Below the pieces are notes generated by a model. That model searched no databases, was not told where the DNA came from, and was given only the letters and a program-made list of their open reading frames with translations. Of a stretch of 16,868 nucleotides of DNA, positions 1,159 through 16,582 are shown one piece after another. This stretch comes from a virus. Taxonomy: Duplodnaviria > Heunggongvirae > Uroviricota > Caudoviricetes. The position numbers and the translations under genes were made by a program. The stretch lies in IMG/VR virus record IMGVR_UViG_2671180804_000001. One strand, 5' to 3'. How positions within the stretch are numbered: position 1 is the first letter of the stretch; the number at the start of each line of letters is the position of its first letter.

Positions 1159-2295
1159 ATGGCTGGCGAACTTAACAAACTGAGCGACAGGAAGTTAAAG
1201 GGATTACATGGCATCCCGGCCAGTAAGATTGAGTTTTATGCTGATGGTGCCGGGTTGAGCGCTAAGGTAACTCTCAAAGAGGCCCGTTACTCGCGTGATA
1301 AATGTCGCCAGTGGCTGGCCTCAGGTAAAGACCCAAAGCACCAGTTGGCGCTAACTACTCAGGAAACGCTTAAACCGGTCACGGTGCAGGAAGCTATCGA
1401 ATACTGGATACGCGAATATGCGGAAGAAAACCGTGCGAACGTTGAGCGGCATAAAGCGGAGCTGCGCAAACACATTTACCCTTATATTGGGAAAATGGCG
1501 CTCGCTGACTGCGAAACCCGTTACTGGCTTGACTGCTTTGACAGGATGAAAAAGAAAACGCCGGTTGCTGCGGGTTATGTGTTCCAGATGTGTAAGCAGG
1601 CTTTGAAATTCTGCCGCGTTCGCCGTTACGCCGTCAGTACCGCCCTTGAAGATTTGAGTATTCCCGACGTTGGTAAAAAGCAGGCGAAAAAAGATCGGGT
1701 ACTGAAAGATAAAGAGGTTGGGGGATTGTGGGCAGCGATATCGTCCGGTGATGTTTTTTTGCCTTACTACACAAACTTGCTCAGAATCGCCACTTTGTTT
1801 GGTTGCCGCACCCAGGAGGCTAGATTATCAGAGTGGACCGAATGGGATATGGATGCGTGGGTGTGGACTGTTCCGAAAGCGCATAGTAAAGGCGGTGAAA
1901 AAATTGTACGCCCTGTTCCGGAGGCGATGCGCTCATTCATTGAAATGCTCCACGATGAGACAAAATCATCCGGCTATCTTCTAGGAGTAGTGAAGAATAG
2001 CGAGGCAGTTAGCCAGTGGGGCCGTAGCGTTTATAAAAAACTGGGGCACTCTGAACCCTGGACATTACATGATCTACGGCGAACGCTTGCAACGCATATG
2101 AATGATATGGGTATCGCTCCACACGTTGTTGAACAGTTGCTGGGCCACTCAATGCCGGGGGTTATGGCTATCTATAACCGTAGCCTGTACTTGCCTGAGA
2201 AGCTGGACGCGCTGAACAAATGGTATGACCGCATAGAACTTCTTGCGGGTAATCATCAAAATGTGGTTCTGTTATCTGTAACGAATAGAAATTAA
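1159..2295 (+). CDS. int: Tyrosine site-specific integrase (P4-type)
   Basis: 378 aa. C-terminal catalytic region contains HDLRRT, LLGHS and a tyrosine in AIYNRS, matching the R..HxxR..Y signature of tyrosine recombinases. First in-frame ATG after an upstream stop; RBS is weak. Confidence 0.9.
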   Translation: MAGELNKLSDRKLKGLHGIPASKIEFYADGAGLSAKVTLKEARYSRDKCRQWLASGKDPKHQLALTTQETLKPVTVQEAIEYWIREYAEENRANVERHKAELRKHIYPYIGKMALADCETRYWLDCFDRMKKKTPVAAGYVFQMCKQALKFCRVRRYAVSTALEDLSIPDVGKKQAKKDRVLKDKEVGGLWAAISSGDVFLPYYTNLLRIATLFGCRTQEARLSEWTEWDMDAWVWTVPKAHSKGGEKIVRPVPEAMRSFIEMLHDETKSSGYLLGVVKNSEAVSQWGRSVYKKLGHSEPWTLHDLRRTLATHMNDMGIAPHVVEQLLGHSMPGVMAIYNRSLYLPEKLDALNKWYDRIELLAGNHQNVVLLSVTNRN

Positions 2296-2387
2296 AATGA
2301 TATTGCGGGTCTAGGTCGGCCAACCGAAAAGCGGGATACCCTACCCGTCTGGCCCGCAAATTATTTAGGGGCGTTGAGGGTGACGGT

Positions 2388-3212
2388 ATGGGTATGCCAT
2401 TGCGTGAGTATTATCCTATAACTCGAGCGGCTAGTTTATTAGGATATGAAACGAATGATCTTTTACACTGGGCCTCTACTGGTTCAATACGATTATTCAT
2501 TAATTTCGACGTAACCAACATAACAAAAGGGTATGTTGTATTCACAGATGAAGGCCTTTCTTTGAGAACGAAATTAATTGAAAAAGGTATCGTTTCTGAT
2601 TGGTTTTCGAGGGTTTATAATTTAAAAAATATTAGGGATATTAACAGCCCAGACCCTAAAATAAATTATGATGGGAGTGAGCTTATTTTAAAGGATGCAT
2701 TGGAATGTGGGTTTAGTGGCTTTTGGCAACTACCTAAAACATTCTTTGGATTGACCGAGCTTTATGATATTCATCCTCAATTCTTCCAGGTGTGGATGTC
2801 AGTATCGAACAAGATGATAGTTAACTTTAATAGTGAGGAACCTATTGATTTTGATTTGGCTGATATTTATCTCATGAAAAATGACTTTATCATGTTAAGA
2901 GATAGTAGAGATGGTGAGTCATTACCTAGTTTTTATAATGGCGGTGTATTACCTCCTGACACTGAAGTTTCAACAGTCGCACTAAATCCAGGGAGGGCAG
3001 AACATCATGCAAAAAAGAGAGAGGAAGTATTAAAAGCTGCCATTTATATTAAACATTGCCACCCCGAACTGTGTAACAATTATACTAACTGGGCTAATGC
3101 TATTAGTGACCATGCTCATAAGTTTTGGCGCAGTGGTGAAGCACCCTTATCAATTAAAACTATTGCAGCATTAATTGGTGAGGCTCATAGGCTACCAACA
3201 CCATCATCGTAA
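2388..3212 (+). CDS. Hypothetical protein, AT-rich cargo gene
   Basis: 274-aa ORF with a GAGGGTGA RBS upstream. A sampled 60-nt stretch (2581..2640) is about 27% G+C against about 62% sampled in the primase gene. No Walker A or other motif recognised by eye. Confidence 0.6.
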   Translation: MGMPLREYYPITRAASLLGYETNDLLHWASTGSIRLFINFDVTNITKGYVVFTDEGLSLRTKLIEKGIVSDWFSRVYNLKNIRDINSPDPKINYDGSELILKDALECGFSGFWQLPKTFFGLTELYDIHPQFFQVWMSVSNKMIVNFNSEEPIDFDLADIYLMKNDFIMLRDSRDGESLPSFYNGGVLPPDTEVSTVALNPGRAEHHAKKREEVLKAAIYIKHCHPELCNNYTNWANAISDHAHKFWRSGEAPLSIKTIAALIGEAHRLPTPSS

Positions 3213-3352
3213 GCCGGTTCCCGAGTTAGCCTAATGCCTCCCCGAGTTATGCTAACTCGGGTTTCAATACAAAGAAATATGCATCAAGATTCTCCAAACA
3301 ACGCCAGAACAGATAGGAAGTGTTCCTTCTGAGAGCGTTAACTGGAGGGTTT

Positions 3353-3637
3353 ATGCTAAATACTGTTTTCATCCCACCAACGGCTGAGCAGCGCCGCCAA
3401 ATTCTTAGGGACTACGGATTTGAATATGACCGACGTATTCGTGAGGCCGAATGCTTGGAAATAACTAGTCTTTCCCGCTCTACCCGCTGGAATATGGAAA
3501 ATGATAGTAAGTTTCCCACCCGCTGCCACTTTGGGCGTAACAGCTGCGCATGGCTCCTATCTGACATTCTTTGGTGGGTTCGTAATCCGCCTTCAGTGTT
3601 AAACGTAAATAATCCGCACAGCCGCAAGTCTGCATAA
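3353..3637 (+). CDS. alpA: AlpA-family phage regulatory protein (HTH, Xis-like)
   Basis: The segment ECLEITSLSRSTRWNMENDSKFPTRCHFGRNSCAWLLSDILWWV fits the AlpA pattern (HTH with SRST..., then GRxxxW and a W-containing helix). The ORF track starts at GTG 3320; I prefer ATG 3353 because GGAGGG lies 5 nt upstream. Confidence 0.7.
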   Translation: MLNTVFIPPTAEQRRQILRDYGFEYDRRIREAECLEITSLSRSTRWNMENDSKFPTRCHFGRNSCAWLLSDILWWVRNPPSVLNVNNPHSRKSA

Positions 3638-3753
3638 ACAGTTTAGATAAGATCATTACTGAGCATTTGTTGCGTGCTGTTGCGTTAGTTATACAGCAGT
3701 ATTGCTAACGCTGTCGCGGCGGCTCTCAATTTGAATATATTGGAGCACTGAAA

Positions 3754-4566
3754 ATGTTATCGAAAAAATTTACTGCCTTAACTGGTAGCGGCCAAACTCA
3801 ATCTGAAACCAGCCCGAAGGATATTTCTGGTAATAATTTTGCTGCGCGAATTCCTGTAACCCTAAGCAATATCGGCGGGAAAGAAACTCAGGCTGTAAGC
3901 GGCCGTAAGCTGCATACGTTTCTGGCTGTAGGGCGTGACTTTACCAACTGGATCAAAGGGCGCATTAAGCAGTACGGGTTCGTCGAAGGGGTGGATTATA
4001 TGATTGTCGAATATTTGACCTCGCCAAAACGGGCGAGCTCAAAATCTCGCCAGCGTATTGAGCATGACTACATTGTCAGCCTGAATATGGCTAAAGAGCT
4101 TTCGATGGTTGAACGTAACGCGCAAGGCAAGATGGCCCGCCAGTATTTCATCGACTGTGAAGAGCGTCTGCGCCGCGTAGCGCCAGAGGAATACGAGGCG
4201 GCGTTGCTGGGCTGGCGTAAAAATCGTGTAGCTGCCTGTGAAGATCATAAAAGCATGGCCGATGCAATGAAGGGCTATATTGAGCGTACCGGCGACAGGC
4301 AACACGGATTTGCCTACAGCAATGAATGCTCGTTCCTGAATAGCCTTGTGCTGGGTGTGCATCCTCGAACGTGGGCGAAAAAGAAAGAAATTCCGGTAAA
4401 GCAGGTTCGTGACCATATGAATGCAGATCAACTGGCACAGCTGGCTTATTTGGAAAGCCGTGATTGTGCTCTGCTGGATCTTGATACCCGTACGGCAACC
4501 CGCAAGACAAAACTCACCGAACTGGCACAACGCTGGCTGGTTAGACGTGTTGGAGGTGCCGGATGA
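3754..4566 (+). CDS. Phage antirepressor-like protein (AntA/AntB N-terminal domain)
   Basis: 270 aa. N-terminal segment QAVSGRKLHTFLAVGRDFTNWIKGRIKQYGFVEGVDYMI resembles the AntA antirepressor domain. GGAG RBS 8 nt upstream of the ATG. Confidence 0.65.
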   Translation: MLSKKFTALTGSGQTQSETSPKDISGNNFAARIPVTLSNIGGKETQAVSGRKLHTFLAVGRDFTNWIKGRIKQYGFVEGVDYMIVEYLTSPKRASSKSRQRIEHDYIVSLNMAKELSMVERNAQGKMARQYFIDCEERLRRVAPEEYEAALLGWRKNRVAACEDHKSMADAMKGYIERTGDRQHGFAYSNECSFLNSLVLGVHPRTWAKKKEIPVKQVRDHMNADQLAQLAYLESRDCALLDLDTRTATRKTKLTELAQRWLVRRVGGAG

Positions 4567-4975
4567 TTGCGTATGAAGAAAAGGCGACCTTGCCGGGTCG
4601 CCAGTGCGGAATAAATCAAAAGCAAAATTATATTACCAGGCTGTCTGCTGGTGGTCAAAGGTTGAGCGATACGGGAATGATTGAGTTTTCTCCTGGTATC
4701 TCAGGAACTGCGGCAATGGCGCAGTTAGGGGGTACTGCATTGCAGCATACCCAATCACCTGAGTTTTCAGTAGCGACCATCTCACAGATAGTCGGTTGCA
4801 TTCTCAACACCCGCCAATACTTCCCCCAATGGGGGGAGTGTGAGCCGGTGGCACATACCCTGTTTTTGCGCACCTCATTAGGATGTGTACAAATCCTTCT
4901 TTTGTGCCCCCCCGTTCTGGGGCGCTCAAATATTGAGTGTCGAGGCCAGCGCAATTTTGCGCCCGCTGATTTTAT

Positions 4976-5161
4976 TCAGGATTTTGGCTCTTCTTTTGCC
5001 TTTTGGCGCTGGCGGCGTTTGATTTCGCCTTTCGCAGCAGTGACAAGAAACCCTGCGGTACTTTCACCTTCATGTTTAAAAAGCTCGATATCTTCCATCA
5101 CATCATGGGGGATTCGAACTGTGGTCATTTGTGACTTTGCATTCTTCGCACCTGTTGCCAT
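4976..5161 (-). CDS. Small DNA-binding regulator, ribbon-helix-helix-like (putative repressor)
   Basis: 61 aa with strong AAGGAG RBS on the minus strand. TTVRIPHDVMEDIELF followed by helices and a basic tail fits a beta-strand/helix/helix RHH layout. Transcribed divergently from the replication operon. Confidence 0.5.
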   Translation of the reverse strand: MATGAKNAKSQMTTVRIPHDVMEDIELFKHEGESTAGFLVTAAKGEIKRRQRQKAKEEPKS

Positions 5162-5355
5162 TACTGAAACTCCTTATGTTAGGTGTATTTCAGTATACGC
5201 AAAAAAAATAAAAGAAAAAGGCTTGAAGTGTATTTCACTTTGGGCTAGTTTGAATATTAAAGGTGACATACACCTTTCAAGTGCGAAGCCCGGTAGTGCT
5301 AGGAACACTAACCGGGCCTCTAACCACCGCCGTTAACGTAGATAACGAGGCAGCT
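5162..5355. promoter_or_regulatory. Divergent control region between the RHH regulator and the replication operon
   Basis: 194-bp gap between divergent starts. Contains a 10-bp direct repeat GTGTATTTCA (5183..5192 and 5228..5237), a GTATAC palindrome at 5193..5198, an inverted repeat AGGTG-ACATA-CACCT (5261..5275) and a long imperfect hairpin at 5288..5317. Confidence 0.45.
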
Positions 5356-5631
5356 ATGAAAGATCATATCACACACCCGCAAGGGCGGGATTCTGACAAC
5401 CAAAAATTAATGCCAGCCTACACATGGCTTTTCCTCGGCACACCAAAAGGCCAGACCTGCACACCTGTAGTTATCCGTACTGCCGCCGACACGGAAGAAG
5501 AAGCCCGAGCATGGTATCCCCGTTGGGATCTGACGTTCGCCGCGAAGATTCGCTCTGAATGTTCTTTGTACCAGTACCGCAACGGTGCTTTCGAATTAAC
5601 CGTGTCAGGGCTGGAGGTGCGCCATGCCTAA
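5356..5631 (+). CDS. Hypothetical protein (first gene of replication operon)
   Basis: ATG at 5356 with GAGG RBS 5 nt upstream. The ORF track extends to 5263, but that upstream part overlaps the leader hairpin. 91 aa. Confidence 0.5.
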
Positions 5632-5815
5632 TCTGAGCATGCTGGATATGGGCGACAAATTTCGCTCTCTGGAAGTCCTGTTAGCTGCGGCGCTGGAAAT
5701 GAACTGGAGTAAAGACGATGAGAGCGATATCGCCGTTGAGTTGATTGATATTGCTCTCCAGCGTTGCCGTGAATTGCGTCAGCAGGTGGATTTACCGGGG
5801 GTGAAGCATGTGTGA
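5624..5815 (+). CDS. Hypothetical protein
   Basis: 63 aa. GGAGG RBS; start overlaps the upstream stop by 8 nt, indicating translational coupling. Confidence 0.5.
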
Positions 5816-6116
5816 TATCTACCATCAACTTGTAAAGCACGCGCCAGATTTCAGAAGACATTCTGATGATGATTTATCTGAGGTTTCTGACGTCTGTGGC
5901 GAGGCAGCACGCGCTGTCAGCAATACCCTTACCCTGATTGGAAACCTGATGCTTGAGGCATCGCTGAGTGAGGAATACAGCAACGAAAACGCACGCCGCG
6001 ACATGATGTTGCTGGGTGACACGCTGCGAAATCTTCCCCGGCTAGCTGAGGCTCTGGAGCAGAACAGTTGCACAGCCAATTTTGTGCTCAGGCAGCGCCA
6101 GGGGGTGTTCAAATGA
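5808..6116 (+). CDS. Hypothetical protein
   Basis: 102 aa. Start overlaps the upstream gene by 8 nt within the same operon. Confidence 0.5.
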   Translation: MCDIYHQLVKHAPDFRRHSDDDLSEVSDVCGEAARAVSNTLTLIGNLMLEASLSEEYSNENARRDMMLLGDTLRNLPRLAEALEQNSCTANFVLRQRQGVFK

Positions 6117-6481
6117 TCAGTAACGTTAAATTCAACGAACTGGAAAAGCGCCTCGATTTGCTGGTGGAGAAGGTACTGAACCTCGAGCTGCAGATCAAAT
6201 CACTCACAGATAGCCAGGGTGGCGAAATCCCCACGGGTATGAGTCCTGTTACTACGCTGGCGGCGGAGTTTGGCATTTCAACCAAGAAGGCCGAAGAACT
6301 AGCGAAAAACACAGGGGTAATGCTGGTACGGCTAAAATCAGGCGGGTTCGTGGCTCCTGATGAGAAATTCAGGGAGGCGGCGCGGCTGGTGCTGCGTAGT
6401 GCAAAACGTAAATACGGATCGGCATACTGGTATCACCCGCTGATTGGTAAGTTCCAGATGAGTGGAGGTATCCCGCAATGA
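6113..6481 (+). CDS. Hypothetical protein with coiled-coil-like N-terminus
   Basis: ATG at 6113 preceded by GGGGGTG and overlapping the upstream stop (ATGA). The ORF track begins at 6068; the internal ATG is better placed. 122 aa. Confidence 0.5.
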   Translation: MISNVKFNELEKRLDLLVEKVLNLELQIKSLTDSQGGEIPTGMSPVTTLAAEFGISTKKAEELAKNTGVMLVRLKSGGFVAPDEKFREAARLVLRSAKRKYGSAYWYHPLIGKFQMSGGIPQ

Positions 6482-6843
6482 CCGATATTTTTGAAGTGAT
6501 AGGCCCATTGTTCCGCAAACTGACCGAAACATGTATTGCTCACCAGATAGCGGAAACCGGTTCGGCAACCTTGCTGGTGGAAAGCGATAAGTATATGGCC
6601 CGCTATCGCTTCACGCTGGAGCCGCGCGTAACTGAAAACGTATTGATGAAATATATGATTTTTGGCTGTTTTGAAGAATTCGGGCGCGATGAGGGGTTAA
6701 GGCGTTTGCGGGATATTCTGCTGACCTGCTTTACCGACGATGGCGATATTAACGAAATGGGGTTGCAGATAGTGAAAAGCTGCCACCTTGAATACCTGCA
6801 TGAAGATTTGGAAGCGGATCTTTCCAATAAGGTGCTGCACTGA
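6478..6843 (+). CDS. Hypothetical protein
   Basis: 121 aa. GGAGG RBS; ATGA overlap with the upstream gene and TGATG overlap with the downstream primase gene. Confidence 0.5.
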   Translation: MTDIFEVIGPLFRKLTETCIAHQIAETGSATLLVESDKYMARYRFTLEPRVTENVLMKYMIFGCFEEFGRDEGLRRLRDILLTCFTDDGDINEMGLQIVKSCHLEYLHEDLEADLSNKVLH

Positions 6844-8975
6844 TGAAGATGAAAAACGCCCCAAACATTAAGTGTCTGCCAAAGGACAAGTTTACTGAGG
6901 CGATTATTTTTGCGGGGGAAGATGCTTATTCACACGCGCAGCACTGGATCGAGAGCGAGGGGAAAAGGGCGGGGGATGATGTGCCGCCTGTGTATCTGGG
7001 GAAAAAGCAGCTGGAGGAGCTTGAAAGGCTGAATATCATCGATCAGGGGCGTCGTTGCGTACGCGTGATTAGAGCTGGCGAGCTTTCCGAAATGCAGATA
7101 AGCACTATCGCAACCAAACTGGCGCTGGCGGATGTGAAAGAGGCCCGGCTGTTTAATGGCATGTTTGAGCCTCAGCCGAAGGAGAACTGGACGGATGTAC
7201 TTCCACGGCTCAGGGAAGATGCCGAGCGTGGGGAAAGTATTGTGGTAAATCTGCCTGTGAAAAAAAGGGAGCCAAAGCCTGAACCGGGTGATGAACTGAA
7301 ACCCCGCGTAGAGAGCCGTAACGATGGCCTGTACTGGATCACGCCAAAGGTGGATAAGGACAGCGGAGAAATAATCAATAACGAAACGTGGATGTGTTCG
7401 CCGCTTGAGGTGGTGGGGTCCGGTAGTGACGGGGCCGAGCGCTATCTCGTTTTGCGCTGGCGTTCGCCACGTGGCCATGAAGATATTACCAGGGCGATCC
7501 CCTGTGCTGATATCGGTGAGCGTGACGGCTGGCGCTATCTAAAGGCTGGTGGGGTAAACGTAACGACTAAAAGTACATTCCGGGCAATTCTTGCCGACTG
7601 GCTACAGCAATGTGGTGCAGGGCAGGAATGGATTATTAGCCATACCACCGGCTGGCATCACGGCGCATACATCATGCCAGATGGTGAAGTTATCGGTGAT
7701 CCGGAAATGCCTATTCTCTTTAACGGTCGCAGCGCTGCATCTTCCGGTTATGCCGTGGCTGGAACTGCTGAGAGTTGGCGGGATTCAGTGGCATATCTGG
7801 CAGGAGGCAACCCATCGATGATGCTGGGTGTGGCTGCGGCATTGTCTGCGCCGCTGATCGGGCTGGTGGGCGCTGATGGCTTCGGCGTCCATTTGTTCGA
7901 ACAGTCCAGCGCCGGTAAGACTACCACCGCAAATATTGCGAGCAGTATTTGGGGCGAGCCCGACGCTTTGAGGTTGACCTGGTACGGTACCGCGCTTGGT
8001 ATTGCTAACGAGGCAGAGGCGCATAACGACAGCCTGTTACCACTTGATGAGGTAGGGCAGGGCAGCAGTGCTAAAGATGTCGCCACGTCTGCTTACACTT
8101 TGTTTAACGGGGCTGGGAAGTTGCAGGGGGCTAAAGAGGGTGGCAACCGGGAGCTAAAGCGCTGGCGAACTGTTGCGATCAGTACCGGGGAAATGGATAT
8201 TGAAACATTCCTGGCTGCTGGTGGAATTAGGGTGAAAGCTGGGCAGCTGGTGCGCCTGCTGAATATCCCCATGGAGAAATCCACGGCCTTTAACGGGCTG
8301 GCTAACGGAAAGGCCCACGCCGATGCACTGAAAGAGTCATGGATTGATAACCACGGCGCAGCAGGGCGTGAGTGGGTAAAATGGCTGGCAACCCACCAGC
8401 AGGAGGCTAAACAGGCTGTGCGGGATGCGCAGACGCGCTGGCGCAGTCTTATTCCGGCTGATTATGGTGAACAGGTTCATCGTGTGGCTGAGCGCTTCGC
8501 CATTCTTGAGGCTGCGCTGGTAACTGGTTCGCCGATAACTGGCTGGAGTGAACAAGCCAGCCGGGATGCTATTCAGCATAGCTTCAATGCCTGGGTAAAA
8601 GAATTCGGAACAGGTAACAAGGAGCACCAGCAGATCATCGAGCAGTGCGAGGCCTTTCTGAACGCGCATGGTATGAGCCGCTATGCTCCGCTGCCATACT
8701 GCCCGTCAGATATGCCAATTCGTGATATGGCTGGATACCGCGAAAGGGGCAAGCATGATGATTCGCCGATGGTGTTTTATACCTTCCCTTCTGCGTTCGA
8801 AAAAGAGATAGCGCAGGGGTTCAATGCGAAGCAGTTCGCCAGAGTTCTGTCTGAATCTGGAATGTTGACACCCCCAGCAAGCGGCAGGGGATACCAGCGG
8901 AAATCACCGCGTATCGATGGGCGTCAGATTAATGTTTACGTCATTCAGTACCAGCAGGAGGGAACCGAAGAATAA
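6843..8975 (+). CDS. Replication initiator, primase/helicase-like protein (P4 alpha-like role)
   Basis: 710 aa, last gene of the coupled operon and immediately upstream of the iteron array. Contains a P-loop-like motif (LFEQSSAGKTTTAN). Resembles satellite/prophage primase-helicase proteins of the DUF927 type; that assignment is from memory, not a search. Confidence 0.75.
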   Translation: MKMKNAPNIKCLPKDKFTEAIIFAGEDAYSHAQHWIESEGKRAGDDVPPVYLGKKQLEELERLNIIDQGRRCVRVIRAGELSEMQISTIATKLALADVKEARLFNGMFEPQPKENWTDVLPRLREDAERGESIVVNLPVKKREPKPEPGDELKPRVESRNDGLYWITPKVDKDSGEIINNETWMCSPLEVVGSGSDGAERYLVLRWRSPRGHEDITRAIPCADIGERDGWRYLKAGGVNVTTKSTFRAILADWLQQCGAGQEWIISHTTGWHHGAYIMPDGEVIGDPEMPILFNGRSAASSGYAVAGTAESWRDSVAYLAGGNPSMMLGVAAALSAPLIGLVGADGFGVHLFEQSSAGKTTTANIASSIWGEPDALRLTWYGTALGIANEAEAHNDSLLPLDEVGQGSSAKDVATSAYTLFNGAGKLQGAKEGGNRELKRWRTVAISTGEMDIETFLAAGGIRVKAGQLVRLLNIPMEKSTAFNGLANGKAHADALKESWIDNHGAAGREWVKWLATHQQEAKQAVRDAQTRWRSLIPADYGEQVHRVAERFAILEAALVTGSPITGWSEQASRDAIQHSFNAWVKEFGTGNKEHQQIIEQCEAFLNAHGMSRYAPLPYCPSDMPIRDMAGYRERGKHDDSPMVFYTFPSAFEKEIAQGFNAKQFARVLSESGMLTPPASGRGYQRKSPRIDGRQINVYVIQYQQEGTEE

Positions 8976-8995
8976 TTACACGTGAGGTTTATTTT

Positions 8996-9284
8996 GTTGG
9001 TTCAGTTGGTTCAGTAGGTAGTGTGTATCGTTATCGTGGTGTTTATATTGATTATTTTACACAGAAACTGAACCAACACTGAACCAACAAATGACTGTTT
9101 TGAACCAACAAGCGGGGGATTTGAACCAACATACCTACCCTGCCCGAATAAGTGTTTTTACTGAACCAACATAAAAACGGCGTTGTTGGTTCAAAACGGG
9201 GCTTTGTTGGTTCACTAAATAAAAATAAGTCTTTTAAAAACAATGTTCTTTACAAATTGAACCAACTGAACCAACTGAACCAAC
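8996..9284. repeat. Iteron array, putative origin of replication
   Basis: 12 exact copies of the 9-mer TGAACCAAC / GTTGGTTCA. Forward copies start at 9069, 9080, 9101, 9122, 9162, 9258, 9267, 9276; reverse copies at 8996, 9005, 9185, 9206. The array begins about 20 bp after the primase stop. Confidence 0.75.
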
Positions 9285-9321
9285 ATAGTTTTGTTTATAT
9301 ACGCAGAAAATGAGGTGAAAA

Positions 9322-9543
9322 ATGTTGGATGCCGGAATGATTGAGAAGAAATCAGCAGGAAGTGCATCGTTGTGGATGCGTGAGGCTGTGGAGGAAATAG
9401 ATAAACAATTTGGCGTTGGCTATGCCAGCAACAACCCTGAGCTGGTGGCAGGGTTCATGCAGGCAGCAGCCATTGATCAGGCGGGGATGTATATCCGGTC
9501 GCTGGTGGAAACGCTGGATTTATGGCCCGGTTCGCTGGCTTAA
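9322..9543 (+). CDS. Hypothetical small protein
   Basis: 73 aa with GAGGTG RBS, directly downstream of the iterons. Confidence 0.5.
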   Translation: MLDAGMIEKKSAGSASLWMREAVEEIDKQFGVGYASNNPELVAGFMQAAAIDQAGMYIRSLVETLDLWPGSLA

Positions 9544-9588
9544 AGCTGAGAGTAAGCCAAAAAACAACATAATTGATGGAGGTAATTT

Positions 9589-9783
9589 ATGGCCTTTAAC
9601 GATTTTATGGAAGAATCGGAATTGTTTGAGCTACTGGGCAAGAAAAAAACGGCTGTATGGCGGTTACGAAAAGACCATGGTTTTCCGAATCCTGTTCTTA
9701 CCTACCCGTCGCGCTACAGCCGCAAAGCTGTAATGAAATGGCTTGAGGATGGTGGTATTAACCGTACGGTTTGTGGTTATTGA
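9589..9783 (+). CDS. AlpA/Xis-like helix-turn-helix DNA-binding protein (second copy in the element)
   Basis: 64 aa with GGAGG RBS. ELFELLGKKKTAVWRLRKDHGFPNPVLTYPSRYSRKAVMKWLE fits the AlpA/excisionase HTH pattern. Confidence 0.6.
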   Translation: MAFNDFMEESELFELLGKKKTAVWRLRKDHGFPNPVLTYPSRYSRKAVMKWLEDGGINRTVCGY

Positions 9784-9798
9784 ACCTGAATTTATCTG

Positions 9799-9827
9799 GC
9801 TGCACTCTTTTGGGTGCAGTTATTTTC
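9799..9827 (+). terminator. Rho-independent terminator after the AlpA-like gene
   Basis: GCTGCAC - tcttttgg - GTGCAGT stem-loop followed by TATTTTCC. Confidence 0.5.
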
Positions 9828-10048
9828 CTGTCAGGTAGGGATGGATGTTGATCATTACCTGTAATCATTATTCTCCGGCATACCGTTCGCCTCTTCGCGT
9901 AAAGTTGCCTGGTCATTGGAAACCTCGCCTTTCTGACCAGTTAGAAAAATCCTAGTGGTTAACATCTGTTGAATAAAACAGCAAAAAGGAGTTCACACCT
10001 TACGCACTATACAGTGCTACGCCCAAAGCCGCGTCAACGCTGGCTTTC

Positions 10049-10150
10049 GGGGGTATACACCCCTTGTGCATAAATAGTGAAACTTGTATACAAAAATGCA
10101 GAAAATCAGCCTGCAAGCCGCACCAGATAAGAGTTGTCTGTGTATACAGA
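10049..10150. promoter_or_regulatory. Cluster of GTATAC-centred palindromes (putative operators) upstream of the AT-rich operon
   Basis: GGGGGTATACACCCC (10049..10063), the perfect palindrome TTGTATACAA (10085..10094) and TGTATACA (about 10143..10150), all within roughly 100 bp of a 570-bp non-coding region. Confidence 0.35.
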
Positions 10151-10353
10151 TAGGATTTAAATTTGTTTAAACTAACCACCCTTTGATATGGTTTGATTGT
10201 CCAACTGTCTGCTGGCTGTATGTGTACCTAACGGGGAAGAGTGATGTTCCTCGCACTAATGTTTTCATTAAACGGGTATCTTTGATGGAGTTTGGTTAAG
10301 AATTCACAGCAGGGTTGTAGAATGTTTTTATCATTAATGGAGATGTATGGAAT

Positions 10354-10710
10354 ATGCAAAGACTGGTTGAAATTAAAAAACGCCTTGAATTAATCGAAGA
10401 AGCATTAAATGAACAGTATCCAAATTATAAATCAGACCCTGAGATTACAGCACAAATTACAGAATTGAAAGGACATGTACAAGACGCTCGTAAAATAATA
10501 CAAAAAAAGAAATCCCTGGGTGAACTATCAGACTTTGAAATAGCATTTATCGAACCAGCTATTAATGATGTTTACTTAACCTCGATCGATAAAATTCGTC
10601 GTGGAGCCAAACCTAGCCCTAGCGTGAGTGAACATATATACGATACGTCTGTGACTTTGGATCATTGGTTGGGCGAAATTGGTAGGTTTAAATCCAATCA
10701 GAATGGTTAA
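10354..10710 (+). CDS. Hypothetical protein, gene 1 of the AT-rich cargo operon
   Basis: 118 aa, charged and predicted helical. A sampled stretch (10381..10440) is about 33% G+C. No recognisable motif. Confidence 0.55.
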   Translation: MQRLVEIKKRLELIEEALNEQYPNYKSDPEITAQITELKGHVQDARKIIQKKKSLGELSDFEIAFIEPAINDVYLTSIDKIRRGAKPSPSVSEHIYDTSVTLDHWLGEIGRFKSNQNG

Positions 10711-10761
10711 AGCGATTTGTAATGTTTTGATTTTTGTAAGGGTGGAATTCGGAGGGGAGAA

Positions 10762-11664
10762 ATGGTAGCAAGCGTATCAACTAAGGAAAATTTGCCTAAG
10801 CTGGAGACAACCTTTCATGTCAAAGCGAATGGTTCAAGTATAAATATCAAACTTGGTGCTTTAGAGTTTAATCATGTCTTATCTCCATGTGAAAAATATT
10901 TATATGTTCAACTTTGTAACTCAACGTCTGAGGACTCAGGTAAATTCATTAAATTAGATGTAACTACTGGACGTAAAATTTATTCGGTAGGGCCTGAGTG
11001 GGGATGGGCCAGAGGCTATACATTTAATCATGATGGAAATATTTGTGTTGAGACAGATCACTATGGTACCTGGTTAGTTAATGATGATGGAGGTATTTCA
11101 GACCGCGCTGATTACTATATGCGCCGCGTGAAGACTGCTGATTATGGAACGATGAGAGCTTTGCCTAATTTTTTTGAGTTGCATGGGAAAACACCTGAAA
11201 CATGTGCCGAGGCGATGGAGGCTCTTGAACGATTTTTGAGTACATGTTCATCCATGTTCCATGGATTGTCGTATGGTGCTCTGGCATTAAAATCACGTGC
11301 TGAGATTCAAGCCTTTTTGGGTGATAACTCAGGGGCACTACAGAGTTGCGTTGATGCTTTATGCCTTGACCCAAAAGTTACAGTTAAACGAATGCTGAAT
11401 TCACTTAGTAAAAAACTTAATCTTGATAAAGACACTTTAAAACCTTCCGATTGGGTTGAGTCGCTAAAAGTTGATATAGAAGCCAATCGTAATATTGAAA
11501 TCAATAAGATTGAAGAAAATCGCAATCAGATAAAAGATAAGGATGTGATTGTTGTCAGTGACATGAAAATTATGAATAAAGAACCACATGCTAAAAATAA
11601 CATCATGAAATATTTTTTGCTGATAGTGGTCTTAGTGGCAGCATTAGTTGCTCTCTTCAAATGA
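10762..11664 (+). CDS. Hypothetical membrane-anchored protein, gene 2 of the AT-rich cargo operon
   Basis: 300 aa with strong GGAGGGGAG RBS. Single hydrophobic helix at the extreme C-terminus (YFLLIVVLVAALVALF); the rest looks soluble. AT-rich. Confidence 0.6.
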   Translation: MVASVSTKENLPKLETTFHVKANGSSINIKLGALEFNHVLSPCEKYLYVQLCNSTSEDSGKFIKLDVTTGRKIYSVGPEWGWARGYTFNHDGNICVETDHYGTWLVNDDGGISDRADYYMRRVKTADYGTMRALPNFFELHGKTPETCAEAMEALERFLSTCSSMFHGLSYGALALKSRAEIQAFLGDNSGALQSCVDALCLDPKVTVKRMLNSLSKKLNLDKDTLKPSDWVESLKVDIEANRNIEINKIEENRNQIKDKDVIVVSDMKIMNKEPHAKNNIMKYFLLIVVLVAALVALFK

Positions 11665-11702
11665 TATTCATATAGGTGATTAATAATCATAAGGTTTAGT
11701 TT

Positions 11703-12224
11703 ATGCAGGAGCTAACGATACAGTTTGCCAAAGATTTACACAGTGTGTTTCAAAGCAATCGCAATAAATTAGATAAGATAGGAATACCATTTTTTTATAG
11801 TTTTCCGACAAATGCATGCCAGGGCGCATCTGTGTATCTTAGCTTATTTTTTACGTGGCTTGTGCCAGAGGCTACTGTCAGAGTTGTTAAAGGAAGTCAT
11901 AGAACGCTGGATCATCATCACTACTGGGTCGAACTTGATGGGAAGGTGTTTGATTTGACAAATGCTCAGTTCGAATCCTGGTTGGGAGAAAGGTATCCTG
12001 AGCTGGACTCTCCTGTATATGCTCAAAGAAAGCATCCTCTTCGTAATTATTTTTTTTATAAAGAAAGAGAGTCGGCCATCCGTGCTTATGCAACATTCTG
12101 TAGCGAGCATGCGAACGTAAAAGATGTAGACAAGGCGCAATGGTTTGTTATGGGGAAACTCAGAGAAATGGGCTGGGAACTTGAGCAGAACATCGCTGGT
12201 GGCCGATTGATAAAAATAAGATAG
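11703..12224 (+). CDS. Hypothetical protein, gene 3 of the AT-rich cargo operon
   Basis: 173 aa. Contains a conserved-looking Cys (TNACQGAS) and a His cluster (LDHHHYWVELDG) that could form a Cys/His catalytic pair; this is speculative. AT-rich. Confidence 0.55.
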   Translation: MQELTIQFAKDLHSVFQSNRNKLDKIGIPFFYSFPTNACQGASVYLSLFFTWLVPEATVRVVKGSHRTLDHHHYWVELDGKVFDLTNAQFESWLGERYPELDSPVYAQRKHPLRNYFFYKERESAIRAYATFCSEHANVKDVDKAQWFVMGKLREMGWELEQNIAGGRLIKIR

Positions 12225-12249
12225 CCAGTTACCACCACTGATAGCGATT

Positions 12250-12274
12250 GGCGATGTTGTTACATCGCCTTTTT
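12250..12274 (+). terminator. Rho-independent terminator closing the AT-rich operon
   Basis: Perfect 8-bp stem GGCGATGT / ACATCGCC with a 4-nt loop, followed by TTTTT. Confidence 0.6.
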
Positions 12275-12366
12275 CATATCATTATCGTTTCATTTTATGC
12301 AATAAATGTATTGATCGTTTCATAATCAGCAACTACAATCACTGTATAAACATCAGGGGGGGTGGT

Positions 12367-12543
12367 ATGAACAAGAAGCAAAACTCACAAGTAGTGCTAC
12401 TGACGCGTGGTCAGGTTGAAGCTTTGCAACGCATTCAGGAAGAGGAGCGTAAACGTTCTGAATTTGGCATACAGCCATCAATCCATGAAATCGCACGCAA
12501 GCTGGTGGATAAGGCGCTGAGCTATCACGGAGGTGCTTTCTGA
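12367..12543 (+). CDS. Small putative DNA-binding protein (RHH-like), absent from the supplied ORF track
   Basis: 58-aa ORF translated by hand: MNKKQNSQVVLLTRGQVEALQRIQEEERKRSEFGIQPSIHEIARKLVDKALSYHGGAF. GGGGGTGG RBS upstream. Its stop overlaps the next start as TGATG. It falls below the apparent length cut-off of the ORF track. Confidence 0.45.
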   Translation: MNKKQNSQVVLLTRGQVEALQRIQEEERKRSEFGIQPSIHEIARKLVDKALSYHGGAF

Positions 12544-13379
12544 TGGCAAAAGTATCGTTAACAGCACTCCTTGGATTTACTGGTGGCGCAAATAACGTCC
12601 GCAATTCCCAAAAGCCAACACTTCGACAGCGGGAAAAATCCATGAGCAAAAAAGAGCGTAGCTTTGCACATCTTGATGCTGCGGCTACTCAAACGATTGT
12701 GGTGCAGGACCAGCAGCAAACCCAGACTCTGAAACCAGCCGGTTCTTACCGTATTTCCAGTCAGCATAGCCGGGGGCATAACGTTGCAATATCAGAGGAA
12801 GGGAAGAATAGCCCTGTCCTGGCGGTTAAGCTGTTACGTGAAACGAAACTAAGCTCCAGTAAAATCCGTGCTCGCCTTCGGGAAGAGCCTGCGGCTTTAT
12901 CAAAGTTCACGGCTAATTTCATGGAAGAAAATATGCCAGGCTGGGAATTTCTCAACGATGAGGAAAAATCCAGAACTGCCATGCAGCTATCCATTCGCGA
13001 TAATGATCAGAACGGTTATCACGCTTCCCGGAATCGTGCATCTCAAACGCTTAAATCGCTTGAAGAACCACTTACTGATGATGAAAAGCAGGCGATGCTC
13101 GAAAATCTTCGTCTGGACCAAAATGCTTCCGATCCTGATACCCCGGATAATGTTGCGGCCCGAAAACAAGCTGACGATGAATATCAGGAGCAGGTTGCCA
13201 GGGCTATTGTTGCCAGAAACAATCAAATGCGTTCCACCGGTGTGTTCTTGCCAGGCGATACCCGTACAGCTGGTGGTAAGCCCTCCGCACCTCGAAATGA
13301 GTTGCAGATGATTAAGTCTGGTCTTAAATCCGGGGCTATTGTGGTTTCTCAGCCCTCAAATGGAGAAATTCATCCATGA
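12543..13379 (+). CDS. Hypothetical protein, long paralogue of the following gene
   Basis: 278 aa with GGAGGTG RBS 7 nt upstream; coupled to the small ORF upstream. Shares a domain of about 100 aa with the next gene. Confidence 0.5.
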   Translation: MAKVSLTALLGFTGGANNVRNSQKPTLRQREKSMSKKERSFAHLDAAATQTIVVQDQQQTQTLKPAGSYRISSQHSRGHNVAISEEGKNSPVLAVKLLRETKLSSSKIRARLREEPAALSKFTANFMEENMPGWEFLNDEEKSRTAMQLSIRDNDQNGYHASRNRASQTLKSLEEPLTDDEKQAMLENLRLDQNASDPDTPDNVAARKQADDEYQEQVARAIVARNNQMRSTGVFLPGDTRTAGGKPSAPRNELQMIKSGLKSGAIVVSQPSNGEIHP

Positions 13380-13825
13380 CTTTCAGCCACCTGAATAACA
13401 GTCCCATGGCTGTGGCAGGTGGCCTTTGGGCCTCTGTCACCCCGATAACAAATGATGTCACTACGATGTCAGCGCATGCAGAGGCCCACTATATTGCGAG
13501 CAGCGAACCAGCTAAACACAACCCCATACTTGCTCTCCGTCTTATTGAACAGGGCATACCTCACCAGAAAGCAATCAGTGTGCTGGAGAAGTCCCCGCGA
13601 GCGCTAAGCAATTATACCGTTCGGAAAATGGAACGTTTCTGCCCCGGCTGGGAGCTGATGACTGAAGAAATGCAGAATATGGAGGCGTATCTCCATAGTG
13701 TCAGAACCAGCGATGGAAATGGATATCTGGCTTGTATGAACGCGGCCACAGCGGCATTAAATAAATTTATAGAGCCGGTAACGGCTGAAGACTTTATCCT
13801 GGTGGGAGATAGTGCTGATGTCTAA
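13376..13825 (+). CDS. Hypothetical protein, short paralogue of the preceding gene
   Basis: 149 aa; ATGA overlap with the upstream gene. RKMERFCPGWELMTEE...DGNGYLA aligns with NFMEENMPGWEFLNDE...DQNGYHA in the preceding protein. Confidence 0.5.
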   Translation: MTFSHLNNSPMAVAGGLWASVTPITNDVTTMSAHAEAHYIASSEPAKHNPILALRLIEQGIPHQKAISVLEKSPRALSNYTVRKMERFCPGWELMTEEMQNMEAYLHSVRTSDGNGYLACMNAATAALNKFIEPVTAEDFILVGDSADV

Positions 13826-14228
13826 TTCATTTGATTTTGAGCTGGTGGCTGACGATAAGGTCAGTGGTGCAATTGAGCGTATTAATGAATCACTGAATGA
13901 CTTGCAGCCGAAGCTGGATAAAACCAGAACGGGGCTGCAATTCGGTGGGCAGGAAACACTGGATGGTTTGAACGGGTATAACTCTCGCCTTGAGCTGATG
14001 GCCCAAAGCGCCAGAGATAATGTGCAGTATATCGGTAATATGGTCCCACCATTAAAATGGTTGGGGATATCTCCGGAAAGCTGGAGAAAATGGCGAAGAT
14101 TGGCCTTGTCGGTGGTGCTATTGGTGGTGTTGCCTACGCAACTGGAAAACTGGCTGAAAGCTACCGGGAAGCATCGCGTGAGGCCTATAACCTTGACGTA
14201 TCGTCTAAAAATGCCGGAATGCGGGTAG
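13818..14228 (+). CDS. N-terminal fragment of a frameshift-interrupted gene
   Basis: ATG 13818 with GGGAG RBS. Translation looks protein-like up to about 14040. After that the frame gives W/R-rich sequence, while the -1 frame (ORF 14057..14878) opens at 14039 and looks protein-like. Confidence 0.4.
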   Translation: MSNSFDFELVADDKVSGAIERINESLNDLQPKLDKTRTGLQFGGQETLDGLNGYNSRLELMAQSARDNVQYIGNMVPPLKWLGISPESWRKWRRLALSVVLLVVLPTQLENWLKATGKHRVRPITLTYRLKMPECG

Positions 14229-14878
14229 ACGACTTCTCTCGCCTTGCTGGTGCGTTGCAGTTTGTCGGCGCTGATAGTGAGAGCGCCAGTTCGTCTATTG
14301 AGGGATTTGCGAAGGCGCTGAAGGAGGCAAGTAGCGGCAGCAATCAGGGCATGATGGCGGCATTTGCGACAATTGGTGTGCAGATACAGAAAAATAAAGA
14401 CGGGTCTGTTGATACGCTAAAAACGTTACAGGAAATTGCGAGAATTTTCCCTAAATACCGCTCGGAACAACAGAAGTCAATCGCTGACAGTCTTGGTCTG
14501 ACACCTGAAATGCTGGCGTTAATGCGTGAGGGGGCGCGAATGAAAACCCTTCTGGCAAAAGCCGATAAAGTTGGACTGACAGTCGATCCCACGCTCAATC
14601 AGCAACTGACGGACTTTAACTCTGCAATAAACGAGGTCAGTGCCTCATGGGATGGCTTTAAGTCTAAAGTCGAGCGTAAAATTTACTCGCACCTTGATAA
14701 TAACGGCATAACAGATACTGTACGTGGCGCATCTGATATGCTTGAGAACAACTTTGACAATATCTCAATTGGTCGCTTCTCGGGACAAAACAAAGGGGAT
14801 GATTCTGCATTAATGCGCCGAGCATTGCGCGACCCTGAGTTTATCAAACAGCTCGATGGGAATGAAAAAACCAGCTGA
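14057..14878 (+). CDS. Central segment of the interrupted gene
   Basis: 273-aa ORF in the -1 frame relative to 13818. No RBS at its own ATG, so it is more likely a continuation than an independent gene. The helical, Ala/Leu-rich composition loosely resembles the N-terminal part of tape-measure-like proteins; this is my impression only. Confidence 0.5.
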   Translation: MVGDISGKLEKMAKIGLVGGAIGGVAYATGKLAESYREASREAYNLDVSSKNAGMRVDDFSRLAGALQFVGADSESASSSIEGFAKALKEASSGSNQGMMAAFATIGVQIQKNKDGSVDTLKTLQEIARIFPKYRSEQQKSIADSLGLTPEMLALMREGARMKTLLAKADKVGLTVDPTLNQQLTDFNSAINEVSASWDGFKSKVERKIYSHLDNNGITDTVRGASDMLENNFDNISIGRFSGQNKGDDSALMRRALRDPEFIKQLDGNEKTS

Positions 14879-14889
14879 CTGCTGGCGTT

Positions 14890-15642
14890 ATGACTGATCA
14901 GGCGAGAAATAAATACCGCAGACATTATTATAACCAGGACAGGGCACAACAATTACTGGACGATATGTCCGCCATTACCCGCCCTCAGGCTCCAGGTAGA
15001 AATAATGTGCCATATAACCAAGGGGGTCAGTATGATTCTATTTTTAGCGATGCTGGCAAAAAATGGGGCGTCGACCCGCGTCTACTCAAAGCCATTATGA
15101 TGCAAGAATCTGGTGGCAATCCTAATGCTATTAGTGACGCTGATGCTCGTGGGTTAATGCAGATAATCCCCCCGAACTTCAAAGCCACCGGGATAACGGA
15201 CTGGAAAGACCCAAACCAGAATATTAATGCTGGAGCACAAATTTTATCCGAAAACTTACAGAGGTCAGGTGGCGACGTACCTCTGGCGCTTCGATATTAC
15301 CACGGAGGATATGACCGCCGTCGATGGGGGCCAAAAAATCAGGCTTATCCATATGCGGTCCTCGATAATTACCAGCAAATTATTAAAGGTGAAGCCCGCC
15401 AACGTGACGGCTTTCCAGATATCCCCATTAATGGGCAATCTGCAGGTTCAGGAATTTTGCAGCCAATTCAGAATGGGAGCCGTAGTGAAAGTACGCTCAC
15501 TGATAACCTGGCTCGTTCGCTTAAAGAGGCAATGTCCGATCAGACGCTGAAGCTTGAAATCACCATGGTCAATGATAAGGGTGAACGTAAGACCTACAAC
15601 GTTGAGAATAATGGACGGATCACCACGCCAATGAATTATTGA
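14890..15642 (+). CDS. Lytic transglycosylase (SLT) domain protein, C-terminal segment of the interrupted gene
   Basis: 250 aa. Family-1 lytic transglycosylase motifs are present: MMQESGGNPNA (catalytic Glu-Ser), GLMQI, and a downstream YYHGG block. Its frame is open from 14866 and overlaps the stop of the preceding ORF at an A6 homopolymer. Confidence 0.7.
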   Translation: MTDQARNKYRRHYYNQDRAQQLLDDMSAITRPQAPGRNNVPYNQGGQYDSIFSDAGKKWGVDPRLLKAIMMQESGGNPNAISDADARGLMQIIPPNFKATGITDWKDPNQNINAGAQILSENLQRSGGDVPLALRYYHGGYDRRRWGPKNQAYPYAVLDNYQQIIKGEARQRDGFPDIPINGQSAGSGILQPIQNGSRSESTLTDNLARSLKEAMSDQTLKLEITMVNDKGERKTYNVENNGRITTPMNY

Positions 15643-15755
15643 TACCGACAGGCACTCAGGAGGTGACCGTATATAAAAATGGGTCCTTCCTGAGACTTTT
15701 GTAAGGCACGGGCATTGCGCGCCGCAGTGTTTTCCTAGCTACAGGTTTTGAATTT

Positions 15756-15994: not shown

Positions 15995-16582
15995 ATGTCA
16001 CTGATGAGTGTGAGTCAGTACGCTAAACACGCAGGGCTAAGTCGTCAGGCCCTTTACAACTGGGAGGCTAAGCAAGGTTTCCCCGCACGAGTGGACGGCA
16101 AGATTGACCAACTGGCCTGTGATGCTTATCTAGCCCGGTATCGTAGTAGCAGTGACCCGCGTACAAAGAATGCAAAGAGCAAGCCCATATCGGCTAGGGA
16201 GGTAAAGTCGATGGGGCGTGAACCGGTAGATATGAGTGTGACCGAGATAAAGCGCATTATGGCTGGCGACGCTAACAAAGCGGCCGGAATGGTCCTAGAA
16301 GAGCATGCTCAACTAGCTGCACAAGCAGTGGGCCTGTTTTTGAGTAAAGGGCCGAATAATCCCCCTGTCACATTTGGTGGTTACCGCTTGTCGATTGTTG
16401 AAACGCCAGATCATGAAGTTGGGCAGATCATTGCTGGTGGTGCGTTCGGCCTGTCTGCTGACGATGTAATTTTTGAATGCCGGGATTACACCCTGGCACT
16501 AATGAGTGATGAGACCGAAGAAACAGCCATGCGGAGGGTTACTCCTTCGCTACTGTACGCCCTGGCCGACTACAACCACTAA
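15995..16582 (+). CDS. HTH-domain protein, terminase small subunit-like (possible packaging protein)
   Basis: 195 aa with GGAG RBS. The N-terminal HTH (VSQYAKHAGLSRQALYNWEAKQGFP) is similar in pattern to the lambda Nu1-type TerS DNA-binding motif, as I recall it. Confidence 0.5.
   Translation: MSLMSVSQYAKHAGLSRQALYNWEAKQGFPARVDGKIDQLACDAYLARYRSSSDPRTKNAKSKPISAREVKSMGREPVDMSVTEIKRIMAGDANKAAGMVLEEHAQLAAQAVGLFLSKGPNNPPVTFGGYRLSIVETPDHEVGQIIAGGAFGLSADDVIFECRDYTLALMSDETEETAMRRVTPSLLYALADYNH

Follow-up and report, generated by a model that had tools for sequence, protein, structure and literature searches.

SaPI origins, among the closest known counterparts of the locus analysed here, lie immediately downstream of rep and contain 6–12 iterons; their AT-rich centre is flanked, left and right, by two or more iterons, which run in opposite directions (PMC9371898, with the Ubeda et al. 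papers of 2007 and 2012 that it cites; the systems compared are SaPIbov1, SaPI1 and SaPI5). The origins of Gram-negative PICIs have been described as SaPI-like, and the pri–ori segment of EcCICFT073 sustains plasmid replication (Fillol-Salom et al. 2018, PMC6092414). EcCICFT073 is the one tested Gram-negative PICI replicon that we found in the literature; its initiator is of another family (D5_N, DUF5906 and Pox_D5) and it carries about 11 GGTAGAYA iterons, with neither DUF927 nor the 9-bp repeat (TGAACCAAC) that is the subject of this report. Iteron plasmids (pSC101, R6K, RK2 and F) use small winged-helix initiators of the Rep_3 type that recruit host DnaA and DnaB, and their iterons are direct repeats of 17–22 bp. 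For P4, we drew the comparison from its GenBank annotation: 46 bp past the 3′ end of the alpha gene comes crr, with ten type-1 repeats of 8 bp in both orientations, whereas ori, with six type-1 repeats, is 4.7 kb distant.

An exact search of the window, by which we mean the whole 16,868-nucleotide stretch of DNA that was analysed, returned 12 copies of TGAACCAAC, 8 on the plus strand and 4 on the minus strand, all within positions 8996–9284 and the first of them 21 bp past the stop codon of a gene for a 710-amino-acid DUF927 protein (Table 1). Chance or low complexity as the source of the repeats was rejected, as the expected count was 0.16 and none of 200 dinucleotide-preserving shuffles of the window reached 12 (maximum 2). 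Allowing one mismatch added a single site (863–871) in 16.9 kb, for which about 4 would be expected by chance, so the motif is restricted to this intergenic stretch. An earlier note on this DNA had given the same count and strand split, with a double at 8996–9013 and a triple at 9258–9284, and its coordinates proved correct. Its suggestion that the repeats are an origin of the iteron type, with the neighbouring protein as initiator, also gains support, here from homology to SaPI Rep, from a conserved layout in relatives and from covariation between the 9-mer and the C terminus of the protein. On this sequence evidence, the 289-bp array is very probably the cis-acting replication region of a PICI-type satellite next to yhdJ in Escherichia coli, served by the DUF927 initiator.

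Table 1. Coordinates of the array, its neighbouring genes and the compared modules and iteron types (window positions unless a locus is named; iteron coordinates from the exact search)
Feature	Coordinates	Strand	Basis or remark
Tyrosine integrase	1159-2295	+	
int-alpA RNA, Rfam RF02996	2304-2371	+	60.8 bits; gathering score 35.8
AlpA	3320-3637	+	
AntA antirepressor	3754-4566	+	
Icd-like protein	5263-5631	+	
710-aa DUF927 initiator-helicase gene, SaPI-Rep-like	6843..8975	+	
Domains of the 710-aa protein	residues 1-130; ~160-610; last ~100		Toprim-like; helicase core; presumed origin-binding
Codons for residues 676-698 (PPASGRGYQRKSPRIDGRQINVY)	8868..8936	+	segment co-varying with iterons
Core patch R686-I691 (RKSPRI)	8898-8915	+	fixed-difference mapping
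TGAACCAAC copies, start positions	8996, 9005, 9185, 9206	-	exact search
TGAACCAAC copies, start positions	9069, 9080, 9101, 9122, 9162, 9258, 9267, 9276	+	exact search
Module 1 left arm, two iterons end to end (9-bp period)	8996..9013	-	exact search and relatives
Module 1 spacer, 55 bp, GC 0.33	9014..9068		comparison with relatives
Module 1 right arm, four iterons, 11, 21 and 21 bp start to start	9069..9130	+	exact search and relatives
Module 2 left arm, + iteron 9162-9170, then - iterons 9185-9193 and 9206-9214	9162..9214		
Module 2 spacer, 43 bp, GC 0.16	9215..9257		GC and duplex-stability ranking
Module 2 right arm, three contiguous iterons	9258..9284	+	exact search and relatives
Conserved box ATAGTTTTGTTTATATAC, then ribosome-binding region of next gene	9285..9321	+	
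First downstream ORF, 73 aa, PHROG 1231	9322..9543	+	absent in 36/36 other TGAACCAAC loci
63-aa ORF across repeats, judged spurious	9052..9243	-	not conserved in relatives
Two ORFs resembling N-terminal parts of tape-measure protein	13812-14228, 14057-14878		
SLT lytic transglycosylase	14890-15642		
Module pair, L071	8901-9011, 17062-17182		
Module pair, L072	20707-20817, 28060-28180		
Module pair, L073	20707-20817, 31311-31431		
Module pair, L075	6540-6650, 8436-8556		
Iteron types 1-6			TGAACCAAC, TGAACCACG, TGAACCGAC, TGAGACAAC, TGAGGCAAC, TGGGACAAC
Iteron types 7-11			TGGGACAAG, TGGGATAAG, TAACCCGCA, TAACCCAC, TAACCCGT

The window begins inside yhdJ, and an island co-oriented on the plus strand follows. 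Complete E. coli genomes matched the window in 5,424 of 5,426 cases, and in most of these the yhdJ flank is at least 95% identical, so the host is E. coli. The order int, alpA, replication gene and origin is the organisation of Gram-negative PICIs (PMC6092414; PMC10111431), and the element is an integrase/AlpA/antirepressor/Icd phage-inducible chromosomal island next to yhdJ; it shares with the PICIs of PMC6092414 both this order, with the origin downstream of the replication gene, and an E. coli host. The int-alpA RNA match follows the integrase gene and precedes the ORF after it, and several small ORFs lie between the Icd-like gene and the 710-amino-acid gene. The most AT-rich stretch of the window (about 1020–1062, GC 0.12) lies between yhdJ and the integrase gene and is probably an attachment-site or int-promoter region.

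Another E. coli strain carries a 98.8%-identical copy of 2105–10149 between gcd and hpt. The cargo at 10150–15671 differs from that of the gcd–hpt copy and is without perC; besides the tape-measure-like and transglycosylase ORFs it holds several ORFs without a family match, and PADLOC detected no defence system in it. Farther on, a 195-amino-acid plus-strand ORF (15995–16582) has weak N-terminal similarity to small terminase (PHROG 57, E = 2.7 × 10−9) and is also weakly similar to excisionase-type helix-turn-helix proteins; it may be a satellite packaging specificity factor.

The 710-amino-acid protein is matched in Pfam by DUF927 alone (E = 2 × 10−48) and is homologous, in sequence and fold, to Rep, the initiator-helicase of SaPIs (PDB 8tch). 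The alignment to 8tch ends at residue 605 of 710 in the query and at residue 478 of 580 in the chain, and both proteins thus extend by about 100 C-terminal residues beyond the helicase core. Those of the DUF927 protein have the same position and size as the SaPI Rep origin-binding domain (PMC9371898) and are presumed, by analogy, to be its counterpart. In SaPI-type replicons it is a C-terminal winged-helix domain of Rep that binds the iterons. The predicted order of strands and helices in this domain is compatible with a winged helix in models of low confidence (pLDDT 25–50 in both the full-length AlphaFold model and one of the C-terminal 158 residues, the latter at pLDDT 50 overall), and a PDB profile search with the domain returned noise only. 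The full-length model, built on a 35-sequence alignment, has a mean pLDDT of 53.6 and is usable for residues 1–130 and parts of the core. The N-terminal domain is Toprim-like in fold only: Pfam detected neither Zn-ribbon nor Toprim domains in the protein, and no primase motifs were recognisable. The earlier label of ‘primase gene’ was therefore loose, and initiator-helicase is the more accurate description. Relatives of 890–950 amino acids carry Zn_Ribbon_Prim and Toprim_3 ahead of the same DUF927 core.

Start-to-start distances between successive iterons are 9, 64, 11, 21, 21, 40, 23, 21, 52, 9 and 9 bp; the spacings are those of contiguous copies and of copies one or two helical turns apart. 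Set against its relatives, the 12-copy array reads as two modules, which lie within 40 bp of each other here and kilobases apart elsewhere. Both have opposed iterons with at least two on each side of a spacer (‘<<’ spacer ‘>>>>’ and ‘<<’ spacer ‘>>>’). The left arm of module 1 has 2–3 contiguous copies (once 7) in nearly all TGAACCAAC loci, and the 11/21 spacing of its right arm, approximately one and two helical turns, is invariant across genera. The spacer of module 1 is conserved in length (43 or 55 bp in relatives) and not in sequence. Module 2 has distances of 23 and 21 bp in its left arm, and the same arm is present in separated copies of the module; the right end of its spacer, ATCTTTACAAAT, is conserved among TGAACCAAC origins.

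The spacers had been described as AT-rich without distinction, but the only strongly AT-rich one is that of module 2. The stretch 9215–9257 is the second most AT-rich 43-bp segment of the window (the lowest 0.12% of windows) and contains its fourth least stable 40-bp duplex, and it is the best candidate for the unwinding element. The module 1 spacer is only moderately AT-rich (8th percentile of the window), and the short spacers between phased copies have a GC content of 0.25–0.58 (0.47 for the whole window).

We compared the DNA 3′ of DUF927 genes in E. coli genomes and in 58 loci across the Enterobacterales. The same layout, in which contiguous 9-bp copies and a 43–55-bp spacer are followed by opposed copies at 11 and 21 bp, lies directly 3′ of the DUF927 gene in more than 60 related loci of this order. 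The form ‘< 9 < (9 <) 52/64 > 11 > 21 >’ recurs in about 40 loci, and a unit of the module 1 type often precedes a mirror-image second module that ends in three contiguous copies. The distance from the rep stop codon to the first iteron is 21–30 bp in nearly all of some 40 related loci (44 bp in L046). Across six aligned origins from five genera (Escherichia, Klebsiella, Citrobacter, Pantoea and Rahnella), identity is 97.1% in iteron columns and 58.4% in spacer columns, a contrast that points to selection on the 9-mers. Two records in the phage collection contain copies of the origin.

Such conservation also bears on whether the repeats are coding. Open reading frames of 50–63 amino acids do span the region, and a repetitive peptide could in principle be read from a 63-amino-acid minus-strand ORF or a 53-amino-acid plus-strand ORF (9152–9313). 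Among eleven origins with 10–12 iterons, however, the stop-free stretches vary in strand, frame and extent; the spacing in the window and in the related locus L002 differs by 1 and 3 bp within the 63-amino-acid ORF; and conservation is concentrated in 9-mers on both strands rather than in a reading frame. PGAP called no gene across the repeats in L002, nor in the near-identical E. coli copy (98.8–99.8%). A coding repeat, for which we see next to no chance, was rejected on its variable frames, shifted spacing and conservation confined to the 9-mers, and the 63-amino-acid ORF is spurious, as had been suspected from the window.

Eleven different 9-mers share the layout 3′ of DUF927 genes, and to each belongs a particular protein motif near the C terminus (Table 1). 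TGAACCAAC is always paired with Q(R/Q)KSPR(I/V): 38 of 38 TGAACCAAC origins go with GRG(Y/F)QRKSPR(I/V), and the cf-PICI copy L070 has QQKSPRI. The helicase cores of L042 and L045 are 96% identical, yet their iterons differ. Between the proteins that go with TGAGACAAC (n = 4) and with TGAACCAAC (n = 38) only 7 of the 560 C-terminal positions aligned are fixed differences, 5 of them at residues 686–691. Across the specificity types more generally, such differences are concentrated at residues 615–644 and 676–704, and for the TAACCC types nearly all fall within residues 615–704. Some proteins that are 75–80% identical overall to the window protein (P0060, P0066, P0070, P0090, P0095, P0099 and others) have a GRHKKKALRKMGGKQH-type C terminus and accompany TAACCCAC iterons, so this presumed origin-binding domain is passed as a module between closely similar helicases.

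The covariation argues strongly for binding of the iterons by the C-terminal domain. Part of it could reflect co-inheritance, because the iterons lie right beside the 3′ end of the gene; co-inheritance would not explain why the differences are focused in a few residues or why 10–12 dispersed copies change together. Islands with the same iterons differ completely in what they carry downstream (capsid genes, ejection proteins, SSB or perC), and none of the four small flanking genes recurs in 36 other TGAACCAAC loci; the 73-amino-acid ORF at 9322, by this comparison, is not a constant partner of the iterons. The DUF927 protein is thus the only constant partner of the repeats.

These observations weigh against a reading of the repeats as a packaging (pac/cos), partition or recombination site for some protein other than DUF927. 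Satellites do carry packaging sites, and the window has the weakly small-terminase-like ORF near its end; set against this, the iteron sequence tracks the C terminus of the DUF927 protein, the small flanking genes fail to recur, the iterons persist in islands of wholly different cargo, and genes for ParB, terminase or recombinase are not regular neighbours of them. We rejected pac, par and att sites because the iterons follow the DUF927 C terminus and have no other constant neighbour, and consider a site of this kind very improbable. A plasmid-type origin dependent on DnaA was likewise rejected: the array contains no conserved DnaA box (TTTTACACA at about 9054 is not kept in relatives) and the initiator is a 710-amino-acid helicase.

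More weight attaches to a role in transcription. A TTTTGnTTATATATA box follows the contiguous iterons (9285–9302 in the window) in all iteron-specificity types, in about 30 loci, roughly 20–25 bp ahead of a start codon, and it reads TATAAT in perC copies. It is conserved independently of Rep specificity, which suggests a reader that is likewise independent of it, for example RNA polymerase; it could serve as a −10-like element of a promoter controlled by Rep, or belong to the melting region. In every case module 2 is followed at once by a gene in the same orientation, whose start codon is about 36–40 bp past the last iteron (the gene at 9322 in the window; perC in L003 and L071–L073), and the module is kept beside perC even where an island no longer has rep. 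A terminator scan found none inside the array and none separating the rep gene from the downstream genes. Together these features would suit an array, or at least a segment 9162–9284, that is mainly a transcriptional operator or promoter, with replication initiated elsewhere or on module 1 only; the DUF927 protein, bound to the tandem triple, would then turn the operon downstream on or off.

Against such an assignment, a consensus scan found no sigma-70 promoter in 8800–9400, the TTTTGnTTATATATA box region included, and no acceptable −35 hexamer 16–18 bp from the box. Module 2 also shares with module 1 and with proven SaPI origins a layout of divergent iterons around an AT-rich spacer, and it contains the most AT-rich stretch of the array. 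Operator and origin roles are not exclusive: an operator as the sole function is improbable, and as an added function of module 2 it is a possibility that we hold tentatively. A search of the inverted repeats against Rfam at a permissive threshold gave microRNA-family noise only.

The two modules of the replication region are separable in relatives. Three EcCIMP1-like E. coli islands at tRNA-Thr (proA–yagU) contain two six-copy TGAACCAAC modules each, with no further TGAACCAAC in the 24–41 kb searched. The first (‘< 9 < 9 < 52 > 11 > 21 >’) lies directly 3′ of a TOPRIM+DUF927 gene, and the mirror module (‘< 21 < 21 < 52 > 9 > 9 >’) lies 7.3, 8.1 or 10.6 kb downstream, 36 bp ahead of the perC start codon. 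In the circular L075 (12,152 bp) the modules are 1.9 kb apart and in Serratia fonticola (L062) about 2.2 kb, and the observed range, from the window upwards, is 0.04 to 10.6 kb. A module without a partner also occurs: in E. coli E2863, near ykgL, a six-iteron module (L003, 5982–6102) lies 36 bp upstream of perC, and the 6 kb around it contain no DUF927 gene. Of 5,426 complete E. coli genomes queried with L003:5930–6140, 529 gave some match and 151 a full-length one. Orphan modules of this type could be relics, or sites that still respond to a matching Rep in trans.

Taken further, the origin would be bipartite in the manner of P4 ori/crr, a proposal that we regard as unlikely. Module 1 would remain beside rep, cargo could enter between the modules, and module 2 would be a second, movable Rep-binding unit that also contains a Rep-dependent promoter for the operon downstream. 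Through the orphan modules ahead of perC, in at least 151 of the complete E. coli genomes, a resident regulator gene could then sense or titrate the Rep of an incoming satellite of the same specificity.

The array resembles each of the known systems in part. As in SaPIs, the initiator is a replicative helicase and the origin, 3′ of rep, has short opposed iterons around an AT-rich region; it differs in that the iterons are 9 bp rather than 5–6 bp, in its two modules of fixed layout, where copies without gaps face copies phased at 11 and 21 bp across the spacer, and in its Gram-negative host. The likeness to P4 lies in the relatives of the window, which have one module 3′ of rep and a second 1.9–10.6 kb away and include the 890–950-amino-acid proteins with the N-terminal Zn_Ribbon_Prim and Toprim_3 of alpha. 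P4 alpha binds the type-1 repeats through a C-terminal winged-helix domain. Its full architecture is Zn_Ribbon_Prim, Toprim_3, D5_N, DUF5906 and Pox_D5, in contrast to the DUF927-only window protein, and the window has a single cluster of two fused modules and no second cluster. The sid, psu and delta genes were not detected in the window element, and its two modules may share the ori/crr logic of P4 without the element belonging with P4. Iteron plasmids have in common with the window repeated initiator sites beside an AT-rich unwinding element and a rep gene; the differences are the 710-amino-acid DUF927 helicase and the 9-bp repeats in both orientations.

Putting these comparisons together, we infer replication, protein binding, the melting site and helicase loading at the array from the sequences of the window and its relatives. 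The DUF927 protein would act, like SaPI Rep, as an AAA+ helicase that initiates replication and loads itself. The ~100 residues at its C terminus would recognise TGAACCAAC, with residues 676–698, and especially R686–I691, setting specificity. Bound on both sides of a spacer, the protein would melt it, most likely at 9215–9257, and the hexameric helicase would load itself there, as proposed for SaPI Rep (PMC9371898). Priming could fall to the host primase, given the lack of recognisable primase motifs in the DUF927 protein, or to the Toprim-like N-terminal domain of that protein.

Relatives with the same iterons are also found as circular records: L070 (NZ_CP069874.1, Klebsiella pneumoniae, 15,995 bp) and L075 (NZ_CP148430.1, E. 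coli, 12,152 bp). Both were deposited as small non-mobilizable circular plasmids and are in fact satellites. L070 is a capsid-forming PICI with int, alpA, antirepressor, icd, DUF927, origin, capsid, protease, portal, HNH and terminase, and L075 is an EcCIMP1-like island; three further records of 18–22 kb matched the same query. Circular records of 12–16 kb fit an excised, replicating form, though assembly of excised islands, without autonomous replication, may also have produced them.

This kind of origin is already known from SaPIs and Gram-negative PICIs, and the present array appears to be a further, well-supported example, to which the specificity map and the fused versus split modules are additions; a full-text literature search with the tandem iteron string found no paper. 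The comparison locates the origin and the probable initiator of a widespread family of enterobacterial satellites, including the capsid-forming PICIs of Klebsiella, in a wider group for which replication experiments have so far used a different initiator family. The eleven pairs of 9-mer and C-terminal motif offer a ready design for orthogonal origin/initiator pairs, including a two-base iteron switch (TGAACCAAC/TGAGACAAC) tied to a five-residue change, and would give a rule for predicting cross-replication or interference between satellites. The two-module layout, fused in the window and kilobases apart in relatives, connects PICI origins with the ori/crr arrangement of P4 in a way that can be tested.
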